Source of the DNA: an uncultured archaeon
Lineage (GTDB): Archaea > Aenigmatarchaeota > Aenigmatarchaeia > Aenigmatarchaeales > Aenigmatarchaeaceae
Direction of reading: 5' to 3'
NCBI GenBank assembly: GCA_964651405.1
Contig: CAZYZB010000002.1
Coordinates: 1 to 41,565, forward strand
DNA length: 41,565 bases
Shown: piece after piece, positions 29,264 through 40,941 of the stretch
Layout of the letters: each line of letters starts with the position of its first letter
How positions within the stretch are numbered: position 1 is the first letter of the stretch
The notes under the pieces: model-generated
What the model was told of the DNA's origin: nothing
The model's database searches: none
The model's input: only the letters and a program-made list of their open reading frames with translations
Program-made: the position numbers and the translations under genes

Positions 29264-31117
29264 CTATCTCTTTATCCTTGACCTAAAAAATTCTTCAGTA
29301 CCTTTGTCCATAAAATATATGTAACATCCCTTATGAGCTCGTGACATCAGAACCCTGTATATGTTCTTGAGATGCTGGGCAAGCTTCTCGTTATTTCTTT
29401 TCGCCATACTATCATGAGAGTTTTCTGGCTTTGCTACCCAAATCTGCTTTTCTTTATCATAAATCAAGTCATTGCCGAATATCACGCCTATGTAGTCAAA
29501 CTCAAATCCCTGTGCAGTATAAACAGTTCCTACTTGTTCCATACCACTTTCATGTGTAGCCCATTTCCAGAACTCTTCCTTGTTTTCCCATGGCATTTTG
29601 AAATCGCCAATAACAACGTCATTAACTAGACTTCCATCTGGATTAGGCTTGCTCCATGGCCAGCAGAAACCTGCAACAATCCTTGCACTGTTTTTCTTTT
29701 GAATGTTCTTCTCAAGAATAGCTTCTTTGAGCTTTATTGAATCGTCAAATATAACAAACTCCATTTTGTCAGATGATGTTAGAAACTGTTTCTCAGATTC
29801 CCTGATTCCAAGGATATTCTCAACCCACTGCAAATACGAATCAGATCCACCACATCTAAATTGCGTCTTTAATTCCGGCATTTCAATAATTTCTGCTCCT
29901 AACTTCTTGGCAGCATCTTTTATTAATTCAACACTTCCAATCTCACTAGGTCTTACCACCTGATACTCATCTATAAAAAATATCGATAGCTTGGAAGGTC
30001 TTATGAGGTCTTCTATCTGTGGGTTCTTTGACCTCAGCTTCCATGGAACTCCATAGTCATTACTATCTCTCCTTATCCTATGAGCCTCATCGCATATAAG
30101 TACGTCTATTTCATTTTCTTTGTATTTTGTAAAGCTGAAAAAATATTTGAAAAACTTGCTTGACCTACTTCCTAGTATATTCCTAAGTGTATTTGTAAAT
30201 GCCGATGAACCCGTCGCATGAAATACAGTCTTACCTTTCCTCATTAGTTCTCCCATTACCTCTAATGCAATGACAGACTTTCCGGTTCCAGGACCGCCTT
30301 TGATTATAACCACGGATTTCTTGTCTGAATCTGCAAGCTTCTTCGCCTTGTGCATTATGGCATTGTAAGCGGTAATCTGATCGTCTATTAGATTGAATAT
30401 CTGCTGCTTATTTATCATGTTCTTTGTGTGATCTAGCAGCTTTTTCGAAGGATGTATCGGACTGTTTATGAATCTGTTGAATACCTCTATTCCAGCGCCA
30501 TTCTGAAGTCTTTTCTTTAGAAAATTTCCAAAATCTTTTATGTCTTCCTTAGCAAACAGAGGATAATTCTCTATGATTTTTTCAAATTTTGACAGAAATA
30601 GAACATTGTTTTTATCATATCTTGAATAGTTGTGACAATAAGCGCATGAGTTTAGGAATACCTCTGGTTTTTCCTCGAATACAGTTACGAAATCCTTAAG
30701 ATCGAAGTGGTATCCTTGAACTTGAAGGGATGGATGTGCATGTTGAATCTCGAACTTTCCAAAATTCACTATAACGTTGCCTTCTATTTCAGAGTCTTTG
30801 ACATTTTCGTTTGACCACTGTTTCAACTCTATTAAAATTATACTATCTCTGTTAGATTCATCTTTGCCGAATAATAGTGCGTCTATCCTTCTAGTTGAAT
30901 AGGGCAGTTCATACTCGACTACTATTTTATTGTCCTTCAACTCTGAGAAGTCAAATGCGTTTTTAAGGAAATTCAGTGAGATGTTCCAAGAATTAAATTC
31001 TGATATGTTTACTCTTTTACCATAATAATCAAAATAGTTTTTAGAAATTATATCTGCAATCCTGTTTTGAATTATATCATCTCTGAAACTTTCAATCGTG
31101 CCTTCATAAAGTCTCAT
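29264..31117 (-). CDS. DUF2075-type (Schlafen-like) SF1 helicase with N-terminal PD-(D/E)xK-like nuclease motif
   Basis: 617 aa. RRIDALLFG...IILIELKQW (D...ExK), Walker A GGPGTGKS, Walker B ICDEAHR, and C-terminal YTAQGFEFDYIGVIFG, typical of DUF2075. Confidence 0.75.
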   Translation of the reverse strand: MRLYEGTIESFRDDIIQNRIADIISKNYFDYYGKRVNISEFNSWNISLNFLKNAFDFSELKDNKIVVEYELPYSTRRIDALLFGKDESNRDSIILIELKQWSNENVKDSEIEGNVIVNFGKFEIQHAHPSLQVQGYHFDLKDFVTVFEEKPEVFLNSCAYCHNYSRYDKNNVLFLSKFEKIIENYPLFAKEDIKDFGNFLKKRLQNGAGIEVFNRFINSPIHPSKKLLDHTKNMINKQQIFNLIDDQITAYNAIMHKAKKLADSDKKSVVIIKGGPGTGKSVIALEVMGELMRKGKTVFHATGSSAFTNTLRNILGSRSSKFFKYFFSFTKYKENEIDVLICDEAHRIRRDSNDYGVPWKLRSKNPQIEDLIRPSKLSIFFIDEYQVVRPSEIGSVELIKDAAKKLGAEIIEMPELKTQFRCGGSDSYLQWVENILGIRESEKQFLTSSDKMEFVIFDDSIKLKEAILEKNIQKKNSARIVAGFCWPWSKPNPDGSLVNDVVIGDFKMPWENKEEFWKWATHESGMEQVGTVYTAQGFEFDYIGVIFGNDLIYDKEKQIWVAKPENSHDSMAKRNNEKLAQHLKNIYRVLMSRAHKGCYIYFMDKGTEEFFRSRIKR

Positions 31118-31491: not shown

Positions 31492-32955
31492 TTATTTAAT
31501 TTTATACTCTCTTCCATACTTAACAACTTTCGTTCTCGCAAACTTCCTGAACAACCCAGGATGCTCAGTATGAACGGGAAAGAGGACTTTCGGCTTTATT
31601 CTTTTCACAGCCTTGCCAAGCAGCGTCCCTGGCGCATGACCTGAGACATGCGTCCTGAACATCCTAATCTTAAAATGCCTTAGCCAATTATTAATTCTTT
31701 CTTGTTCGATCTCCATCTCAACATCAAATGGCTCGCACGTCGATTTAACGTAAAAAGCATTCCTCGGTTTTATATCTATTAGCTCTTTCAGATCAAAGTT
31801 CGAGCAGAACCAAACATACTTGCTAGGATCTTTACTAACGCATTCATGGTCAGAACAATTGTTAAGGAAAGGCTTTTCCCAATGCTCGTAATCCTGCTCC
31901 TTTATCCTTTGCGGAAAGTCCTTGCGTATGACTCCCCAGCCTTTTCTTATGCTATAGACACAAAGATTCTCGTCATCAATGCTTGGTATCTTGGCATCGT
32001 TGCACTCTTTCAAAAGACTTAACAAATAAGCCTGACGAGTACTGATAGCCAACTTCCTATCCAATGCCTTAGCTGCATTAAGAAACGACAGCATACGATC
32101 AGTATCACGTATCGGCCAGTCAGCAACTATAAGACCCTTGCACTTGCAACCAATCTTGGAAACCTTTTTCTCAACATCTTCTTCTTTCTGTCCCTTCCTC
32201 TCATTGATCCTCGTTCCCTCACTTATCATTGCGACAGGCTTTGACTCAGCGCACTTTTCAACGAACGTTTCACTCTCAGCGCCGCGGCGGCCGTGGAATC
32301 TTATATCACCAGTATAGACTATCGCTCCTTCTGAAGTATGAATAATAAAACCAGTCGCACCAGGCAATGAATGATCAACTGGATAAGGAATAATTTCCAA
32401 AGAATCAATTTTTATTTTATCTCCGAACTCAAAGTCGTTGACTTCCCTTTTAATAACGATATCATTATAGTGATACTGTTTAGTCTTTCTGCTGTATTCG
32501 CCTTGTTTGTTGACATAGATTTGAAAGTTTTCAACAATGTCAAGGAAATCCGTAAATCCTGACTGGGAAGTATTCTGGATTGCTTCAAGTATGAGTTTGG
32601 TCGGCTTTGAGCAGAATATTGGGACGTCATGTCGTATGTGATTTACATAAGCGGAATGGTCAGCGTGGGCATGTGATAAGAATATTCCTTGGATAGATGG
32701 CTCTGCTTCGAAGTCGCGTCCCATATGCTTTAGAAAATCTCTTCTATATAATCCTTTCAAATCAGGCAATAACCCGAACTCGATCAGGTCACCAATCACG
32801 TTGCACTTTCTCGGCTGCAAGAACTCTGAGAAGTATTGATTAGCTCGACTAAAGCTCATCCCAAAGTCAAGGAAAATATTCGTGCCGCGGTCTTCCAATA
32901 ATATTTTATTTCCACCAATCTCGTTGACGCCACCGTAGAAAGTAAGCGAAACCAT
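31492..32955 (-). CDS. Metallo-beta-lactamase fold / beta-CASP (RNase J-like) hydrolase
   Basis: 487 aa. FYGGVNEIGGNKILLED, the HxHxDH motif LSHAHADHS, and C-terminal RTHVSGHA. Sits 9 nt upstream of the MazG gene. Confidence 0.75.
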   Translation of the reverse strand: MVSLTFYGGVNEIGGNKILLEDRGTNIFLDFGMSFSRANQYFSEFLQPRKCNVIGDLIEFGLLPDLKGLYRRDFLKHMGRDFEAEPSIQGIFLSHAHADHSAYVNHIRHDVPIFCSKPTKLILEAIQNTSQSGFTDFLDIVENFQIYVNKQGEYSRKTKQYHYNDIVIKREVNDFEFGDKIKIDSLEIIPYPVDHSLPGATGFIIHTSEGAIVYTGDIRFHGRRGAESETFVEKCAESKPVAMISEGTRINERKGQKEEDVEKKVSKIGCKCKGLIVADWPIRDTDRMLSFLNAAKALDRKLAISTRQAYLLSLLKECNDAKIPSIDDENLCVYSIRKGWGVIRKDFPQRIKEQDYEHWEKPFLNNCSDHECVSKDPSKYVWFCSNFDLKELIDIKPRNAFYVKSTCEPFDVEMEIEQERINNWLRHFKIRMFRTHVSGHAPGTLLGKAVKRIKPKVLFPVHTEHPGLFRKFARTKVVKYGREYKIK

Positions 32956-33064
32956 ATTAAGAAAATGGTGTATCTGAAATAAAAATTCACCACTAAAAGT
33001 GGTAACAAACTAATTTGACTTCTGACTCTAAAATTGCATAATATATTTATGACAGTGATATCAT

Positions 33065-33310
33065 ATGATATATAGAGATATCATCAAAGGCAACTGTATA
33101 GTTAGGCTTTCACACCATGCTAGAAGACAAGCCAAGGAAAGAGGAATCTATTCAGGTCTGATAATAGAAGCAATAATGTGCGGAGAAATGAAGCAATTTG
33201 GAAAAAACTATGTCAAATTTATTAAAAGATGCGGAAAAGGCAATCTGATATGCTTGGGTGAAAGAAAGGAAAGAGACAAAATTTTGATACTCACGATAGA
33301 GTGGGGATGA
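33065..33310 (+). CDS. DUF4258-like toxin candidate
   Basis: 81 aa. VRLSHHARRQAKERGIYSGLIIEAI resembles the DUF4258 signature. Overlaps the downstream antitoxin-like gene. Confidence 0.45.
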   Translation: MIYRDIIKGNCIVRLSHHARRQAKERGIYSGLIIEAIMCGEMKQFGKNYVKFIKRCGKGNLICLGERKERDKILILTIEWG

Positions 33311-33648
33311 TTATGAACAGAATAAAAAAAGAAACAAGAAGCGAAGAGAGAAAATGTTGGAATTGCAAGTCTGTTATGGAAGAAATCACGGGGATGGATC
33401 CTGACGGAATTGCTTATAATTGCTGGAGATGCCCCAAATGTGGCGACGAGGTTCTAACAATGAGACAACTTCATGATATATCCGAAAAGGAAAAGAAGAC
33501 TATGGAAGCGAAGATATCCAAATGGGGCACGGCCGTTGCCATTAGGATACCCAAGTCGATAGTCCAGACTTATAATTTGGTGCCTGGCAAGAAAGCGACC
33601 ATCATACCAGAGAAGACAGGCTTCAAGGTTGTCTCAAGGAAGAAATAA
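33301..33648 (+). CDS. Zn-ribbon + AbrB/SpoVT/MazE-type antitoxin candidate
   Basis: 115 aa. CWNC...CPKCG, then KWGTAVAIRIPKSIV (swapped-hairpin barrel). Confidence 0.55.
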   Translation: MGMIMNRIKKETRSEERKCWNCKSVMEEITGMDPDGIAYNCWRCPKCGDEVLTMRQLHDISEKEKKTMEAKISKWGTAVAIRIPKSIVQTYNLVPGKKATIIPEKTGFKVVSRKK

Positions 33649-33655
33649 TTTTTCA

Positions 33656-33692
33656 GATAAAAACCTTTTATTGTAAATGATATTTAGAATTA
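33656..33692 (+). repeat. Cassette-site copy R0 (degenerate, with two short insertions)
   Basis: GATAAAAACCTTTTATTGTAAATGATATTTAGAATTA aligns to R7 (GATAAAGAATTGTAAAATTTAGAATTTAAG). Overlaps the stop of the Zn-ribbon gene exactly as R7 does. Confidence 0.5.
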
Positions 33693-33890
33693 CTTCAATT
33701 TTCTCTTTATCTTCTTTGAGAGCTGGTTTATCTCTTCGTCATCGAAATAACTCTTTCCGCAGTTTGAGCATTCCAGGCATTTCTGTCTTACTTTCACAGA
33801 ACCGGGGTTCTTTATCTCGAATGTAAAGTCCTTCTTCCTGCTGACAAGCTTAGTCGAACCGCATTCTATGCATCTGCTTAGTCTAGTCAT
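33690..33890 (-). CDS. YgiT/MqsA-type Zn-ribbon protein
   Basis: 66 codons from ATG 33888-33890; the track start at 33935 runs through the MBL relic. CIECGS...CSNCGKSYFDDEE. Paralog of 38308..38514. Confidence 0.55.
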   Translation of the reverse strand: MTRLSRCIECGSTKLVSRKKDFTFEIKNPGSVKVRQKCLECSNCGKSYFDDEEINQLSKKIKRKLK

Positions 33891-33897
33891 ACGCTCC

Positions 33898-33960
33898 CTA
33901 CAATAATATTTCATTACCGCCGACCTCGTTGACACCGCCGTAGAAAGTCAGAGACGTTAT
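33898..33960 (-). pseudogene. Relic 5' end of an MBL/beta-CASP gene (copy B)
   Basis: ATA-ACG-TCT... translates as ITSLTFYGGVNEVGGNEILL-stop, against the intact MVSLTFYGGVNEIGGNKILLED. The start codon is mutated to ATA. Confidence 0.8.
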
Positions 33961-33989
33961 AATAAAGAATTGTAAAAATCAGAATTTAA
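33961..33989 (+). repeat. Cassette-site copy R1
   Basis: AATAAAGAATTGTAAAAATCAGAATTTAA. Confidence 0.85.
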
Positions 33990-34082
33990 TGATTAGTAGT
34001 TTGTGGGCATAGGTTAGTTTACTGCCGTAGGCATTGAAAAGAGTTAAAAGACTTCTTAACCTAAAAATTAATAGGTGAAATT

Positions 34083-34661
34083 ATGGGTAAGATATTGGAA
34101 AAAATAAAAGAAACTTTTAAAAAGATTGCTGAATTTGATGCAAAATATCTTTCAATTTCGGAAAGTTCAAGCTCTTATGATTCACCATCTTATGATTCAT
34201 CAACAACTTATAGCCGCGGTGAGAAAATGACAAATATTGCTGAAATCATAGAATTACAAAGAAGAGGAGTTTACGCAATAAGCTCCAGTCCAGATGAAAT
34301 ACTCAGGGAATTACAAAGAAGAGAGCATACTGCATCAGGTTTCTTAACTGAAAAAGATTGTAGAACTTGTGGCTACATGAAATCGTATGGTGCGCTTTTT
34401 GGCAATAAAGTTCAGAAAAGTTGCGCCAGTTGTACTTACATGATAGAAGCGCGATCGAACGAATTATCCTTTGGATATAGTAAACCAAAACCTCAAATAC
34501 AGATAGATCCTGATGAATTAAAAAAAAGAATCGAAGCAGAAAGAAACTCGAGGTTAGAAAGCGTCTACCTTCTAGAAGACTTGGCTGATGTTGTAGGAGA
34601 TAAGGAGATATCTAGAAAAATCAGAGAAATAGCAAGTGCTGAAAGGCGGCTACGTCATTAG
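34083..34661 (+). CDS. Hypothetical protein (CxxC...CxxC)
   Basis: 192-aa ORF with a Ser-rich N-terminus and CRTCGY...CASCTY. Confidence 0.4.
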   Translation: MGKILEKIKETFKKIAEFDAKYLSISESSSSYDSPSYDSSTTYSRGEKMTNIAEIIELQRRGVYAISSSPDEILRELQRREHTASGFLTEKDCRTCGYMKSYGALFGNKVQKSCASCTYMIEARSNELSFGYSKPKPQIQIDPDELKKRIEAERNSRLESVYLLEDLADVVGDKEISRKIREIASAERRLRH

Positions 34662-34706
34662 TTCTCTAATTGCTCTATTCTCGATACATCAACTTTAAAT
34701 TTCATG

Positions 34707-34737
34707 TCAGGAAATCTTAGAAAAATCAGGATTTAAT
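34707..34737 (+). repeat. Cassette-site copy R2 (left half degenerate)
   Basis: TCAGGAAATCTTAGAAAAATCAGGATTTAAT, preceded by CATG as in full copies. Confidence 0.7.
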
Positions 34738-34739
34738 GT

Positions 34740-35102
34740 TTAAACATATGCACAAATATTTTTGTTCGTGTAATTGTTGAATATACATTTACAACCAGTA
34801 GGTGTTTTGGTTCGCATTGCACATGCTGGAGAAGCAGATGAGCATCTTGTGTTAATTTCATTATCAATCAACGCATATTTACTCATGTCAGTATTCTTAT
34901 TCACGCATGCTCCACAAGGTAAGTTAGGAGCATAAATACAATCAGAATTAACATTGCAACTAAAGTCTATCTTATAATATTCATTGTCGAGAAAATTATA
35001 AAGCTCGCCACAAGATTTGAACGTCAAAGTGTTTAGGTAAATATACAGAATCAAAATCAAAACAGCGATAACTGCAATTCCAGCAATGTAAAGTTTCTTC
35101 AT
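34740..35102 (-). CDS. Secreted/anchored Cys-rich small protein
   Basis: 120 aa. N-terminal hydrophobic helix, then about 12 Cys. The ATG abuts R3 and the stop is 3 nt from R2. Confidence 0.55.
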   Translation of the reverse strand: MKKLYIAGIAVIAVLILILYIYLNTLTFKSCGELYNFLDNEYYKIDFSCNVNSDCIYAPNLPCGACVNKNTDMSKYALIDNEINTRCSSASPACAMRTKTPTGCKCIFNNYTNKNICAYV

Positions 35103-35130
35103 AATAAAGAATTGTAAAAACTAAGATTTA
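35103..35130 (+). repeat. Cassette-site copy R3
   Basis: AATAAAGAATTGTAAAAACTAAGATTTA. Confidence 0.8.
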
Positions 35131-35164
35131 TTCATTTCAATGCATTCTTCATTACCAAAAAATA

Positions 35165-35350
35165 TCATCGCTTTCTTTTCGTAGTTTTACAGCAATAACA
35201 GCATTTCAATAAAACATATCCGTAAAATGCGAGTATTGCAGCAATTAATTCAATGATGATTGCTAAATCTGTACTAAATCCCCAGAAAGCTAGTCCATAT
35301 ATCACTATAATGACTGAAATCAAAATTGCAAGATAAAACGATATCTTCAT
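35165..35350 (-). CDS. Small two-helix membrane peptide with CCYCC tail
   Basis: 61 codons from ATG 35348-35350 (MKISFYLAIL...). The track's extra 13 aa are a translation of repeat R4. Confidence 0.5.
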   Translation of the reverse strand: MKISFYLAILISVIIVIYGLAFWGFSTDLAIIIELIAAILAFYGYVLLKCCYCCKTTKRKR

Positions 35351-35381
35351 GATAAAGAATATGGAAAAATCAAGATTTAAA
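35351..35381 (+). repeat. Cassette-site copy R4
   Basis: GATAAAGAATATGGAAAAATCAAGATTTAAA. Confidence 0.8.
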
Positions 35382-35445
35382 GTTCTCAAGTTGACGCATC
35401 TGTCGAAACGCTTAAATCTTTAATTGTTTTATTTTTATCAGTGTT

Positions 35446-36900
35446 TTGATGAGTGTAAGAGAGCATGCCGTAAAGATGGAAAAAAATCAGAAGGAAATAG
35501 GCGTTCTGTACAGTTCTCTACAGGGGAAGGCGAAAAGCGTAAGGGAGCAATACGAGAAGCTGGGAGAATTCATAAGGGTTCTGGATAGCATAGGGAATGT
35601 TATACCTGATGCAACAAAGTACACAGACCCCTTAGAAATACCCGCCGAAAGATTTTTACAGCAAAGTGCGTTTGTCGAGGAAACAAAGCAAAGGCTTTTG
35701 CAGATAGATGGCATCTACGAGACCGTTTTCAAAAACGGGAAGGACACTAGCACGAAGCAGTCTACAGCAAAAGTAGCAGAGCAGCCTGCGGCAAAAACAC
35801 CGAAACGTTCTACAGTGTATCTGGGGAAGGAGAAAAGATTCTTGGAGTTGGTCTCTAGCGGAATAAACACTCCAGATGACTTGATGAAAAATTTGGGAGT
35901 AAGCCAGTCGTATCTCAGCACCATTGGAACAAAACTTGCGGACGAAGGCAAGGTAAATAAAACAAGGCTTGAGGGGAAAAAACTTAGAATTGTATATTCT
36001 ATTCCAGGAAAAATAGGCGCGTCTGCAGCGACGTCCGTACCAACAGAAGAGCCGATGAAAATGTTTGACTATGAGTCATGGCTTAAAAGAATAGAAGGGG
36101 ATGTGGACTTGTCCAACCTTACGGTCATGGGAAGCGGTGGCATCAGGGTGTTGCTGGAAAGGCAGAACACTTCAGATATTGTAAAGATAAGCGAAGCTGC
36201 AAACATGCCCACCGAGAAAGTCGATAAGACGCTGAGGGCCTTCGAGCATGGCAATATTTTATCTGGGCAAGAACTGTCTGATTATGGTAAAAAACTTATC
36301 GGCGTTTACAAAAGCTTGGGCGTTCCAGAAAGAATTGCGTTACATTTGAGTAACAATGCCAAGACTGTGGAAACCATTTCCAGTCTGATGGGTTCAAAGC
36401 CAGAAGAGGTAATGAAAACCCTAGACCAGATGAAAGGTTGTGTGGTGCCCTTAGGCAATGGATACGCGTTTTCCCCGAAATTCTTCAAATTCGTGGACGA
36501 TGCCAGAGCTAAAATAAGAGAGAGTAACGTAAAAAGAAATTCGACGGTGACCGTGGAAGTCAAGGCGACGGCAGAAAGTCCTCAGAATCTTCTTATATTA
36601 AGTCTGGAGAAAAATTTTGGCACGCCCTCTATTAATAGATTGGATTTCAGAAAAAAAGCAGTATGGCAGATGTATGAGAACCTTGCTAAAAAATGCAGCC
36701 CCAAAGAATTGGTTGATCTGAATTCTGCTGTATCAAGAACAATGAAAGAGGAAATGAGCGTAAAGGATTATTACAAAACAATAGAACCATTAAGAAAGAA
36801 GCTTCTTCCAAGATTTTCAGGGAATAGTGACATACACTATAGTTCTAGAATTAATAGAAATATTTATTCTCACAGACAAAGAAGAAATTCTCATAGATGA
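35446..36900 (+). CDS. Large protein with three wHTH-like modules
   Basis: 484 aa (ATG at 35449). HTH-like segments: TPDDLMKNLGVSQSYLSTIGTKLADEGKV, TSDIVKISEAANMPTEKVDKTLRAFE and VETISSLMGSKPEEVMKTLDQM. Confidence 0.5.
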   Translation: MMSVREHAVKMEKNQKEIGVLYSSLQGKAKSVREQYEKLGEFIRVLDSIGNVIPDATKYTDPLEIPAERFLQQSAFVEETKQRLLQIDGIYETVFKNGKDTSTKQSTAKVAEQPAAKTPKRSTVYLGKEKRFLELVSSGINTPDDLMKNLGVSQSYLSTIGTKLADEGKVNKTRLEGKKLRIVYSIPGKIGASAATSVPTEEPMKMFDYESWLKRIEGDVDLSNLTVMGSGGIRVLLERQNTSDIVKISEAANMPTEKVDKTLRAFEHGNILSGQELSDYGKKLIGVYKSLGVPERIALHLSNNAKTVETISSLMGSKPEEVMKTLDQMKGCVVPLGNGYAFSPKFFKFVDDARAKIRESNVKRNSTVTVEVKATAESPQNLLILSLEKNFGTPSINRLDFRKKAVWQMYENLAKKCSPKELVDLNSAVSRTMKEEMSVKDYYKTIEPLRKKLLPRFSGNSDIHYSSRINRNIYSHRQRRNSHR

Positions 36901-37001
36901 TACCATCAGAAAGCAAGTAGTTCAATAATTCAGAGTTGCCTTAGATTCATGTTCTTCAGCATCTCGGATTTATTCATCATCTACAATCCAACCGCCTTCA
37001 C

Positions 37002-37066
37002 GTCCTGCAGAAGGATTTTATTTCCTCCGATTCATTAACTCCGCCGTAGAAAGTAAGCGAAACCAT
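37002..37066 (-). pseudogene. Relic 5' end of an MBL/beta-CASP gene (copy C, frameshifted)
   Basis: MVSLTFYGGVNE, then a 1-nt deletion. Restoring it gives IGGNKILLQD, against the intact IGGNKILLED. ATG 37064-37066 abuts R5. Confidence 0.8.
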
Positions 37067-37095
37067 GATAAAGAATTGTAAAGTCAAGATTTAAA
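37067..37095 (+). repeat. Cassette-site copy R5
   Basis: GATAAAGAATTGTAAAGTCAAGATTTAAA. Confidence 0.8.
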
Positions 37096-37133
37096 CAAAG
37101 AGAATTTAAAGATTTCTTTTTAATTGAATTAAT

Positions 37134-38925: not shown

Positions 38926-39612
38926 ATGATTAAAGCAATAATATTTGATTTGGATAACACTTTGATTGATTTCATGAGAATGAAAAGACTGAGTTGCGAA
39001 GCAGCCATGGACGCTATGATAAAGTCAGGATTGAAAATAGACAAGGAAAAAGGTCTAAAAATCATGTTTCAATTATATTCAGAATATGGTTTTGAATACC
39101 AAAAGATATTCCAAGTCTTCATGAAAAAAGTTCTGGGAAGAATAGATTATGGAATAATGGCTTCTGGCATAGTTGCTTATCGCAGAGTCAAAGAAGGTCT
39201 ACTATATCCTTATCCAAATGTTGTTCCTACGTTAAGCAAACTAAAGAAAAAATACAAGCTAGCTATCCTATCAGACGCACCAAAAATACAGGCGTGGATA
39301 AGATTAGCTGCAATGGGAATCCAAGACAAGTTTGACTTGGTAATAACATTTGACGAAACCATATCCAAGAAACCTAGCAAGAAGCCATTTCTATATCTTT
39401 TGAAAAAACTAAAACTGAAACCAGAAGAATGTGTGATGATAGGAGACTCTTTGAGAAGAGACATTGCTCCTGCCAAGCATTTAGGCTTCAAGACTGTTTT
39501 TGCAAAATATGGTGAAGACAAAGAGAAATCAAGAATTAAGCCTGACTATATAATAAATGATATAAAAGAGTTGTTAAAAATCCAGGATTTAAGTATTTTC
39601 AAAAAAACATAG
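38926..39612 (+). CDS. HAD-superfamily hydrolase
   Basis: ATG at 38926 (MIKAIIFDLDNTLIDF = motif I), LAILSDAP (motif II), K...MIGDSLRRDI (motifs III/IV). The 3' end contains repeat R8. Confidence 0.8.
   Translation: MIKAIIFDLDNTLIDFMRMKRLSCEAAMDAMIKSGLKIDKEKGLKIMFQLYSEYGFEYQKIFQVFMKKVLGRIDYGIMASGIVAYRRVKEGLLYPYPNVVPTLSKLKKKYKLAILSDAPKIQAWIRLAAMGIQDKFDLVITFDETISKKPSKKPFLYLLKKLKLKPEECVMIGDSLRRDIAPAKHLGFKTVFAKYGEDKEKSRIKPDYIINDIKELLKIQDLSIFKKT
39562..39593 (+). repeat. Cassette-site copy R8 (inside the HAD 3' end)
   Basis: ATAAAAGAGTTGTTAAAAATCCAGGATTTAAG, encoding ...IKELLKIQDL. Confidence 0.8.
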
Positions 39613-40744: not shown

Positions 40745-40922
40745 ATGATTAAAGCCATTATCTTCGACTTGGACAACACTTTGATCTCATGAAAAAAGGC
40801 TGAGCTGCGAAGCAGCCATGAAAGCCATGATTTCTGCTGGAAAGTAGACAAGGAAAAAGCGAGCGTCAAGCCGGATTACATCATAAACAATATAAAAGAA
40901 TTGTTAAAAATCAGGATTTAAG
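40745..40922 (+). pseudogene. Decayed second HAD hydrolase gene (5' ~115 bp + 3' ~55 bp, large internal deletion)
   Basis: MIKAIIFDLDNTLI..., then frameshifts, then ...KPDYIINNIKELLKIRI-stop. Aligns to both ends of 38926..39612 at roughly 80 percent identity by eye. Confidence 0.8.
40892..40922 (+). repeat. Cassette-site copy R10 (inside the HAD pseudogene 3' end)
   Basis: ATAAAAGAATTGTTAAAAATCAGGATTTAAG. Confidence 0.85.
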
Positions 40923-40941
40923 AATTACAATTTTTTAAATT

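Follow-up and report, generated by a model that had tools for sequence, protein, structure and literature searches.

Relic starts of an MBL/beta-CASP gene in an Aenigmatarchaeota genome: a possible record of serial accessory-gene insertion

The window analyzed here, the whole stretch of 41,565 nucleotides of contig CAZYZB010000002.1 (assembly GCA_964651405.1, an uncultured archaeon of the Aenigmatarchaeaceae), raises a question about one locus. Why does the start of an MBL/beta-CASP gene occur there in three direct copies (at 32955, 33960 and 37066, all on the minus strand), only one of which heads an intact gene? The window belongs to a 50-contig MAG of 784 kb, referred to below as G000, and the copies and the segment that they share are as follows.

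31492..32955, minus strand: intact MBL/beta-CASP gene, 487 amino acids; open reading frame beginning MVSLTFYGGVNEIGGNKILLED
32930..32943, minus strand: core ACTTTCTACGGTGG of the intact copy (gene nt 13-26), where the crossover is proposed
33901..33960, minus strand: relic B, corresponding to MBL nt 1-60; profile positions 4-64, E = 2e-11
36996..37066, minus strand: relic C, corresponding to MBL nt 1 to about 73, ATG intact; profile positions 1-67, E = 5e-14

A 22-nt degenerate pattern of the gene start was matched three times where no match was expected. Furthermore, a profile of orthologous 5' ends compared with the whole 784-kb genome matched only these three places, the genome-wide E-value being 3e-19 for the intact gene (those of the relics, listed above, are also genome-wide). 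The intact protein carries the Pfam domains Lactamase_B_2 and RMMBL, among solved structures it comes closest to 2AZ4 (EF2904) and less close to RNase J, and its gene heads an MBL-MazG-DUF2075 operon that is found with the same three genes in the metagenome locus L038. Relic B, read from 33960 down to 33901, begins ATA ACG TCT (ITSLTFYGGVNEVGGNEILL), its ATG changed to ATA; its core lies at 33935-33948, its frame is then closed by TAG at 33900-33898, and it is identical to the resident gene at 47 of 60 positions, with differences mostly at third codon positions. Relic C, read from 37066 to about 36996, gives MVSLTFYGGVNE, a 1-nt deletion and then IGGNKILLQD. It has a 22-codon open reading frame with its core at 37041-37054, and its homology probably extends to nt ~73 across a second 1-nt deletion. 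The allele closest to relic C is that of G002 (59/73 identical, vs 53/73 for the resident gene). No longer MBL fragment was found anywhere in the G000 genome beyond the intact gene and the two relics. The other beta-CASP genes of the genome (C17 and C12) were considered as a source of the relics and rejected, with protein identities of 23-31%.

When stubs were compared with the intact gene of their own genome, 40 of 45 differing codons were synonymous (p = 9e-18) and 42 of 52 base differences fell at third positions. Since these differences are almost all synonymous, each relic once headed a working allele, and the relics originate from other, once-functional MBL alleles. The stub of the related genome G015 is itself 44/48 identical to the resident allele of the window. 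An earlier note on this sequence had described one intact gene start and two relics, with the altered start codon of relic B and the deletion of relic C, and had taken the relics for leftovers of other alleles; all of this held. It had placed the end of homology at about 55-65 nt, which held only in part, as relic C ends nearer nt 73 than 65. The abruptness that it reported was confirmed within a few bases, yet stub ends spread over nt 29-73. Ordinary duplication from an MBL gene elsewhere in the genome would have refuted its view, but no such source exists there.

Could the arrangement be an artefact of assembly or binning that joined strain variants end to end? The source genome is indeed a MAG in 50 contigs, and the relics resemble other alleles. 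Against this reading, independent single-run Logan assemblies reproduce both relic junctions to the base, and gene order across the locus is unchanged in contigs from at least 10 runs. The identical stretches shared by the copies span 11-23 nt, below usual assembly k-mers, and unrelated assemblies show the same architecture. We regard an artefact as all but excluded.

The DNA that precedes each copy is of two kinds.

33961..33994, minus strand: R1 repeat, putative R-type leaderless promoter (TTAAATTCTGATTTTTACAATTCTTTATT) abutting relic B; from sequence geometry
37067..37100, minus strand: R5 repeat, putative R-type leaderless promoter (TTTAAATCTTGACTTTACAATTCTTTATC) abutting the ATG of relic C; from sequence geometry
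32956..33010, minus strand: putative P2-type promoter block of the intact gene; conserved upstream of orthologues
36958..36975, minus strand: degenerate R-like core (AATAAATCCGAGAT) about 25 nt past the end of relic C; read from the sequence

The R-like core past relic C is a weak match that may be due to chance. The proximal 21 nt of R5 are identical to the DNA directly upstream of the intact MBL gene of G015. A TTAAAT box occupies -31..-26 in both R1 and R5, the genome-wide A/T peak lies at -30..-25, and TBP is encoded in the genome. A leaderless archaeal mRNA starts at its ATG, and an A/T-rich box is centred about 26-27 nt before that point. The geometry of R1 and R5 fits a BRE/TATA promoter of a leaderless mRNA, an inference made from sequence alone in which the transcription start is itself inferred and no RNA data are available; continued promoter activity of R1 and R5 likewise rests only on geometry. 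Within the P2 block, TTTTTATTT (32977-32985) resembles a TATA box and precedes the ATG by about 22-30 nt. Its motif GTTAC.ACT.T.AGTGGT.AA.TTTTTATT is conserved upstream of the MBL orthologues in G015, G010 and L038, and the block is itself repeated within those arrays. R repeats separate single genes in the G000 array, and at 35102, 35350 and 38282 the ATG of an unrelated cassette gene adjoins an R-type promoter without a gap. Most cassette borders in the window carry an R repeat without any stub. Eight repeat units from G000 and G010, folded on both strands, behaved like shuffled sequences in a search for hairpins (z -0.7 to +0.8), and no Rfam family or tRNA was found in the window.

Between relic B and the intact gene lie the following cassette genes.

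33065..33648, plus strand: toxin-antitoxin-like gene pair; weak Pfam matches
33690..33890, minus strand: orphan YgiT/MqsA-type Zn-ribbon gene, 66 amino acids, downstream of relic B; Pfam MqsA_antitoxin
33891..33900, minus strand: TAGGGAGCGT, in which the stop of the relic B frame is joined to the Zn-ribbon gene's own Shine-Dalgarno-like spacer; from alignment

The gene pair, DUF4258-like (81 aa) and Zn-ribbon/AbrB-like (115 aa), is antisense and placed between the relic B cassette and the intact MBL gene; L038 has the same pair immediately before its MBL gene, with a copy of the P2 promoter on either side. Homologues of the orphan Zn-ribbon gene usually follow a partner gene of ~100 aa and begin MQ(Q)KMSKC. 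The copies in the window and in G015 begin MTRLS and follow an MBL stub instead of the partner. In native operons the partner and the Zn-ribbon gene are separated by a spacer, (A)TAGGAG...ATG, to which the segment TAGGGAGCGT can be aligned. In G015 the stub and the Zn-ribbon gene form one continuous reading frame, a fusion absent from all 15 homologues found in a set of 5.8 billion proteins. Relic B is part of an older cassette, stub plus orphan Zn-ribbon gene, that is common to G015, and not a fresh local scar; in G000 and G015 the shared junction is joined to different gene bodies. We infer that the far end of relic B was reshaped by a later deletion that removed the toxin-like partner of the Zn-ribbon gene.

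These junctions invite the alternative that a module of ~100 nt, promoter plus first codons, was co-opted and copied for strong leaderless expression, relic B driving the Zn-ribbon gene and relic C an antisense transcript into a 484-aa gene. The R-type promoters on the ATGs of the three unrelated genes and the in-frame stub of G015 speak for it. Against it, the stubs diverged under coding constraint from several alleles and are not copies of the resident gene, and the in-frame fusion is not conserved (15/15 homologues are without the stub). The ATG of relic B is gone, no coding sequence is driven by relic C, and the stubs are confined to the MBL locus and never dispersed. We consider this reading very improbable.

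Related genomes showed the same pattern on a larger scale. In G010 nine stubs and the intact gene, all co-oriented, occupy C4:73042-82425 (9.4 kb), the ten copies being spaced 0.4-1.4 kb apart, and no MBL stub was found elsewhere in that genome. There are two stubs each in G018 and G248, one in G015 and a single orphan stub in G016; others occur in G007 and in two metagenome contigs (L046 and L120). Every array has its intact gene at the proximal end, and no stub was found away from the MBL locus. A shared cassette-start motif, GTTTAAATTGTTTT, comes after the stubs of G010 and G018, whose ends lie at nt 29-42; over all genomes the ends range across nt 29-73, with no single fixed base. In G010 the oldest stub (s1) lacks a promoter and lies 2 nt after the stop codon of a membrane-protein gene, which is read as its native context. 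The G016 stub equals stub s9 of G010 over 30 nt, but its promoter type differs. The empty state, with an R-type promoter placed directly on an intact MBL gene, was found in the close relative L098 (another lineage, with 95% amino acid identity over 198 residues), L058 and G018, in line with the check that the earlier note had proposed, and was absent from assemblies of the window's own population. About 75 of 80 metagenome loci with an MBL orthologue have no stub. Between the live genes of G000 and L098, identity is 72-77% from nt 1 to ~135 and ~90% beyond (Fisher p = 6e-6). Furthermore, five Logan contigs from five runs all end exactly at nt 95 of the MBL gene, an indication that the assembly graph branches there. 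The mosaic and this contig break indicate that the 5' end of the live gene has itself been exchanged.

A second alternative is the decay of tandem paralogues, in which two further full MBL genes, acquired as cassettes, were reduced by internal deletions to a promoter and 60-73 nt, without any insertion at the gene start. In its favour, the far end of relic B coincides exactly with the native ribosome-binding spacer of a partnerless Zn-ribbon gene, its junction resembles a deletion fusing an MBL promoter to an orphan antitoxin, and the two relics end at different points (nt 60 vs ~73). Against it, the three ends of G000 and G015 all fall within the first 75 of 1464 nt, with a chance of ~1e-4 if placed at random, and no longer MBL fragment exists in the genome. 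The nine G010 stubs all end at nt 29-42 with a shared motif. Uniform ends and a common motif, seen in both G010 and G018, cannot be explained by independent deletions. Homogeneity of the core within arrays is also left unexplained, and we judge paralogue decay unlikely.

That core, ACNTTCTACGGNGG (gene nt 13-27), codes for TFYGG; 12-14 nt of it are invariant among the copies within an array. An 11-nt segment, ACTTTCTACGG, is identical in all three copies of the window. In G010, TTCTACGGCGG is identical in 10/10 copies while flanking synonymous sites vary: synonymous sites of codons 6-9 show ~0 bits of diversity over the ten copies, and those of codons 2-5 and 10 vary. The same synonymous sites of the core vary freely among single-copy orthologues.

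Such a core raises the possibility of classical site-specific integration, in which small mobilisable cassettes with an attP-like copy of the gene start would be inserted by a tyrosine or serine integrase that another replicon, such as a virus or plasmid missing from the assemblies, provides in trans, and the relics would be attL-type scars. Identity of the core within each array beside variable flanks, the uniform stub ends and common motif of G010 and G018, and the strictly tandem, co-oriented copies at one target all favour it. The search for machinery speaks against it. No match to the tyrosine recombinase family PF00589 was found in G010 (89% complete, 7 contigs), and in G000 there was only a weak truncated fragment (C6:9483-10088), on a contig other than that of the array. 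The serine recombinase family PF00239 had no match in any of five genomes tested. G015 has four integrases, on C2, C5 and C11, none of them on the array contig C4; no integrase gene was found in or near any array, and no recombinase domain among the cassette proteins scanned. No viral contig carrying the gene-start site was found. The units are also patchworks (the G016 stub and G010 s9 with different promoters, the G000/G015 junction on different gene bodies), and the mosaic boundary of the live gene falls at nt ~120-170. Both this boundary and the shared contig end at nt 95 fall outside the proposed core, so not all exchanges use it. Conventional recombinases are thus absent from the arrays. 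An enzyme acting in trans from an unassembled replicon is not excluded, and site-specific integration remains possible. With neither a recombinase nor an attC-like hairpin, homologous recombination or an unknown enzyme is implied.

We favour, with a probability of roughly 0.62, serial insertion at the gene start, the relics being former MBL gene starts displaced upstream by successive accessory genes. Accessory segments would have entered in succession right at the start of the MBL gene, by exchange in or beside the core within the coding sequence. Each incoming segment would bring its own leaderless promoter and first codons, which now head the intact gene, and would leave the previous promoter and stub on its far side. 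The newest segment would run from 33900 down to ~32930 (Zn-ribbon gene, toxin-antitoxin pair, P2 promoter and gene start), and an older one of ~3 kb would lie between relics C and B; the far end of relic B would have been reshaped later by the partner-gene deletion. This order of events is inferred. Several observations count against the mechanism. No circle, excision product or base-resolution presence/absence polymorphism was seen, assemblies only being available, and all assemblies of the window's population show one arrangement. The window relics end at nt 60 and ~73 without the cassette-start motif, unlike those ending at nt 29-42 in G010 and G018, and secondary deletions must therefore be invoked. 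The mosaic boundary and the nt 95 break outside the core, and the lack of stubs at most MBL orthologues, also weigh against it. Because most cassette borders carry R and no stub, recombination between R repeats may even be the main process in the window, with stubs as by-products. As to the earlier note, its claim that a repeat directly precedes both relics held, and its reading of that repeat as their retained promoter held for position, promoter use being inferred from geometry. Its claim that the upstream region of the intact gene is unrelated failed, that region being a second promoter type shared with orthologues. Repeated insertion or replacement with a crossover in the first tens of bases was supported, and strengthened by the relatives; the likeness to attL/attR scars is an analogy only, no integrase by the arrays, resolvase or attC-like fold having been found.

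Several known systems resemble this locus in part. Integrons, which have been reported in archaeal MAGs too (Ghaly et al. 2022, PMC9668308), share with it a one-locus array of mostly one- or two-gene cassettes, in which toxin-antitoxin genes and genes for small secreted or membrane proteins abound, a recurring site between cassettes (ten copies in G010, three in G000), and the apparent entry of new cassettes beside a fixed anchor gene. However, the MBL arrays have no adjacent IntI or any tyrosine recombinase, and their repeat lacks the imperfect hairpin of attC. Their site falls within the beginning of the anchor gene's coding sequence and is copied anew with each insertion, and their cassettes stand in both orientations and each bring a promoter, whereas an integron relies on one Pc. 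Tandem islands occur at gene ends, for example SCC at the 3' end of rlmH/orfX, tRNA-targeting islands and tycheposons. Like the MBL locus, they take serial insertions at one gene end, the target gene is rebuilt with every insertion, a direct repeat of its fragment marks each junction, and degraded remnants accumulate. The MBL arrays also have the identical core expected in all att copies of one array (G010 10/10, G000 3/3). Islands use element-encoded recombinases and usually 3' ends; at the MBL locus the 5' end and promoter are replaced, inserts measure 0.4-3 kb and no recombinase is encoded. In SSV-type archaeal integrases attP lies inside the int gene, again a recombination site within the coding sequence of a gene adjoining the inserted DNA, but that gene is a tyrosine integrase split by integration, while the beta-CASP hydrolase gene stays intact.

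Orphan toxin/immunity arrays of CDI/Rhs systems have homologous recombination on a conserved motif as their accepted driver. There too a short conserved coding piece precedes each displaced module, and the displaced pieces come from other alleles, as is true of the MBL stubs. The MBL locus is a mirror image, with 5' ends and promoters going upstream and not 3' toxin tips downstream; its inserted genes are unrelated to the anchor protein, and its stubs carry no variable functional domain. The evidence on breakpoints is divided: the mosaic at nt ~120-170, the branch at nt 95 and the independent recombination of promoter type and stub speak for scattered breakpoints, the uniform stub ends of G010 for a single site. 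We infer that joining by homologous recombination (of the Campbell type or through circles) on short conserved stretches is likelier than an unidentified site-specific enzyme acting in trans. Whichever way the segments were joined, the same stub architecture recurs in several genera.

The start of the MBL/beta-CASP gene occurs three times in the window, once intact and twice as short dead copies (relics B and C):

31492..32955, minus strand: intact MBL/beta-CASP gene, 487 aa
33960 to 33901, minus strand: relic B, reading ITSLTFYGGVNEVGGNEILL, with ATA and not ATG as start codon and TAG directly after
37066 to ~36996, minus strand: relic C, with ATG kept, a 1-nt deletion after codon 12, and recognizable to about nt 73

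All three copies share ACTTTCTACGG. A degenerate 22-mer matched exactly three times, at the intact start and the two relics, when no match was expected, and a profile of orthologous 5' ends run over the whole 784-kb genome (G000) returned only three places (E = 3e-19, 5e-14 and 2e-11) and no further MBL fragment elsewhere. Both relic junctions were recovered base for base in independent single-run assemblies, and the order of genes was the same in contigs from at least 10 runs. The structure is therefore real DNA and not a MAG artefact. After relic C come about 100 nt of unassigned DNA and then the 3' end of a convergent gene of 484 aa. If the copy of the local repeat R that abuts relic C, R5, were to fire, it would yield a 22-codon ORF and an antisense transcript, a possibility for which there are no RNA data. 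A pseudo-R site within the NKILL codons was considered as breakpoint and dropped because the homology of relic C continues through it.

Most differences between the relics and the resident gene are at third codon positions. When all dead gene starts found in the study (stubs, in any genome) were pooled, each compared with the intact gene of its own genome, 40 of 45 differing codons were synonymous and 42 of 52 base differences fell at third positions (binomial p = 9e-18). It follows that every stub acquired its differences when it still headed a working gene, and this excess is the basis on which the claim of the earlier note that the relics are leftovers of other alleles held. The allele nearest to relic C is that of genome G002 (59/73); relic B lacks a close match and shares 47/60 positions with the resident gene. 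Ectopic duplication from another MBL gene was rejected, since the other beta-CASP genes of the genome are only 23-31% identical and thus too distant.

Stubs were also found in relatives of the source organism and in metagenome loci:

G010, contig C4, 73042-82425 (locus L014, 1031-10426), co-oriented: nine MBL 5' stubs and the intact gene
G018: two stubs
G015: one stub 1 kb upstream of the MBL gene, forming an in-frame fusion with a Zn-ribbon ORF
G016: an orphan stub, with no MBL gene
G248: two stubs
G007: one weak match
L046 and L120, two JGI contigs: stubs present

The array of G010, a genome of the same family and another genus, is the best one for dissecting the system. Its ten co-oriented matches lie within 9.4 kb and were first found with a 14-nt degenerate pattern over fetched loci; a 17-nt pattern over 371 genomes of the class picked out these ten copies again and nothing else in G010. 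Stubs of G010 and G018 stop at nt 29-42, and a common cassette-start motif, GTTTAAATTGTTTT, comes next; this motif is a TATA-like box about 29 nt before the ATG of the cassette gene, and its TAA often ends the stub ORF after ten codons. Synonymous sites in codons 2-5 and 10 differ among the ten copies of G010; those in codons 6-9 are constant, with TTCTACGGCGG in every copy. Single-copy orthologues show free variation at the sites that are fixed in G010. The G010 stub most distant from the MBL gene lacks its own promoter and lies 2 nt after the stop codon of a membrane-protein gene, which is where the original chromosomal start would be expected. Of the 80 metagenome loci, most hold a single copy of the gene start, and a scan of genome contigs gave only three distant loci.

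The cassettes of G010 include a HEPN/nucleotidyltransferase pair, DUF4258/DUF2283-like pairs, small wHTH proteins, a Cys-rich secreted protein and a HAD-like hydrolase. One array cassette of G018 (contig C31, locus L128, 1765-2397) holds a gene for a TFIIB/TFB-repeat protein (Pfam E = 2e-26), an additional transcription-factor-B-like gene among the cargo. At L120 3873-3950 a stub follows a partner/Zn-ribbon operon and has an internal 15-nt tandem duplication (GATAGGCGACAACAA twice).

Zn-ribbon genes of the type found at relic B normally follow a gene for a partner of about 100 aa, with an (A)TAGGAG..ATG spacer between the two. It is precisely this spacer (TAGGGAGCGT-ATG) that adjoins nt 60 of relic B, and the partner is gone. 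We infer that this junction probably marks a later deletion, after which the antitoxin stood as an orphan behind the old MBL promoter; the in-frame fusion of G015 can be derived from such an arrangement by a further deletion of 22 nt. A conserved fusion protein of stub and Zn-ribbon was rejected, given that all 15 database homologues are 65-69 aa long and lack the stub.

One copy of R abuts each relic. On the coding strand it reads TTAAATC(C/T)TGATTTTTACAATTCTTTATC-ATG, a geometry that, judged from sequence alone, matches an archaeal TATA box serving a leaderless mRNA; promoter activity is likewise inferred. In G018 the R-type promoter is the spacer that runs from the stop of a YgiT-type Zn-ribbon gene (..AAGTCTTAA) to the ATG of the intact MBL gene, and it is because R is this Zn-ribbon/MBL spacer that many R copies have remnants of a Zn-ribbon 3' end to one side and of an MBL 5' end to the other. 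A second promoter type, P2, is defined by the block GTTAC.ACT.T.AGTGGT.AA.TTTTTATT, which is conserved ahead of the orthologous genes of G015, G010 and L038; its ATG-proximal part, CAATTCTTTAT, is common to P2 and R. The earlier note had described the region upstream of the intact gene as unrelated, a claim that failed on this conservation. It had also envisaged an "empty" arrangement, with R directly upstream of an intact gene, and this was found in two loci, L058 and L098, the latter with an MBL protein 95% identical over 198 residues.

Elsewhere in G000 an R-type core, TTAAATCCTGATTTTTCTATA-N8-ATG, clusters before small genes (C6:8266-9273, C13:2135-22650 and C23:1307-13413). R as a genome-wide promoter consensus was rejected: its strict form occurs only in the window, and looser forms cluster in the C6, C13 and C23 arrays. 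No other gene 5' ends are repeated behind R-type promoters in G000. A stub acting as a dispersed, MITE-like promoter element was also discarded, all copies being at one locus and in one orientation. At window 39577-39604 and 40897-40926 the complement of R encodes the last codons (IKELLKIRI-stop) of a HAD hydrolase gene and of its gutted second copy. At L038 8795-8850 a copy of R truncates a 118-aa gene after codon 11 so that it ends ...KKIRI-stop, which is the ending of the HAD pseudogene at window 40745-40922. The HAD and MBL genes are divergent neighbors with the array between them in G000, G018 and L098. At L038 9240-9985 a DUF4258 toxin-antitoxin pair lies between two P2 promoter copies (AAGTGGTAAAYTTTTATTG).

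The facts fit serial insertion at the start of the MBL gene, a reading to which we assign a probability of roughly 0.62 and in which the order of events is inferred. Exchange would take place in or beside the core, a short conserved stretch at about nt 13-27 of the gene, whose three copies in the window lie at 32930-43, 33935-48 and 37041-54; the incoming DNA would bring a promoter and first codons for the MBL gene, and the old promoter and stub would stay on the far side of the insert. The alternative that tandem paralogues suffered independent deletions is ruled out by the uniform ends of the G010 stubs, and the probability that three ends would all lie in the first 75 nt of a 1464-nt gene (~1e-4) also speaks against it. 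Four observations bear on how insertion would proceed. First, the live gene of G000 is a mosaic when compared with L098, with 72-77% identity to about nt 135 and ~90% after it (p = 6e-6):

Window 32786-32955 against L098 2785-2955: mosaic 5' segment, the first ~135-170 nt of the live gene

The 5' end and promoter of the live gene have a history different from that of the gene body. Second, five Logan contigs from five runs (L132, L135, L139, L141 and L144) stop exactly at MBL nt 95 (...CTTGACTTTGG; window 32861-32955), which implies that the samples hold a second sequence with the same preceding ~30 nt that diverges at nt 96. Third, the G016 stub equals s9, one of the G010 stubs, and has another promoter, so that promoter type and stub were reassorted. 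Fourth, the stub-to-Zn-ribbon junction, including its odd MTRLS start, is common to G000 and G015, the Zn-ribbon genes being otherwise different. Together these observations favor homology-driven insertion (Campbell-type or by a circle), with recombination on short conserved stretches preferred over one fixed cut; the enzyme is inferred, and there are no read-level data.

The main rival to homology-driven insertion is a site-specific enzyme acting in trans. G010 lacks any detectable tyrosine recombinase, and in G000 the only trace of one is a truncated fragment on another contig; searches of five array-bearing genomes gave no resolvase, and neither integrase nor resolvase was found near the arrays, the scanned cassette proteins included. 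The repeat units hold no hairpin, an attC-like structure was not found, and no known RNA or tRNA target was identified. A viral vehicle was rejected, as no IMG/VR viral contig holds the start-plus-core pattern. The only tyrosine-recombinase-like ORF of G000 (C6:9483-10088) adjoins the C6 R-type cluster; it is a 201-aa C-terminal fragment with what seems to be His at the catalytic Tyr position.

The MBL gene is the first of an MBL-MazG-DUF2075 operon. Its protein is closest to the uncharacterized EF2904 (PDB 2AZ4); its relation to RNase J is remote. Downstream of MBL-MazG, the DUF2075/Schlafen-type helicase (window 29264-31117) is matched by three PADLOC models of candidate defense families, PDC-S41 (E = 2e-24), AbiO and Nhi, and on these matches the operon is likely a defense module. 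The MBL gene is accessory (16/61 relatives), and arrays are wholly different between genomes whose MBL bodies are ~90% identical, indicating fast turnover. The source organism is an archaeon that encodes TBP and has an A/T-rich box 25-30 nt before the ATG of its genes; its genome is 0.78 Mb with 34% G+C. Contigs C37 and C40 (51% and 63% G+C, against 32-36% in all others) are likely binning contaminants.

A bolder reading, which we regard as unlikely, would make the array a dedicated gene-capture platform of small (DPANN-like) archaea that dispenses with tyrosine and serine recombinases, an "integron" with a nuclease and host repair in the place of an integrase. The attachment site would be the first ~30 nt of the beta-CASP gene, each cassette would bring a fresh promoter and start, and the beta-CASP nuclease or its MazG/DUF2075 partners would make the breaks. 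A candidate target of such cleavage would be ACNTTCTACGGNGG.

Very small archaeal genomes are thought to have few routes of gene acquisition, and to our knowledge no archaeal integrons are known outside those recovered by integrase-plus-attC searches. In the present case, genes for toxin-antitoxin systems, nucleases and small secreted proteins build up as a hypervariable array at the 5' end of a single accessory nuclease gene, and the displaced gene starts form a readable stack, up to nine deep, in genomes without a detectable site-specific recombinase. If serial insertion is true, the stack would be a datable record of successive acquisitions, and a conserved coding motif together with a portable leaderless promoter could act as a landing pad. 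Co-oriented repeats of the first 30-70 nt of a gene offer a signature that can be searched for in other lineages.
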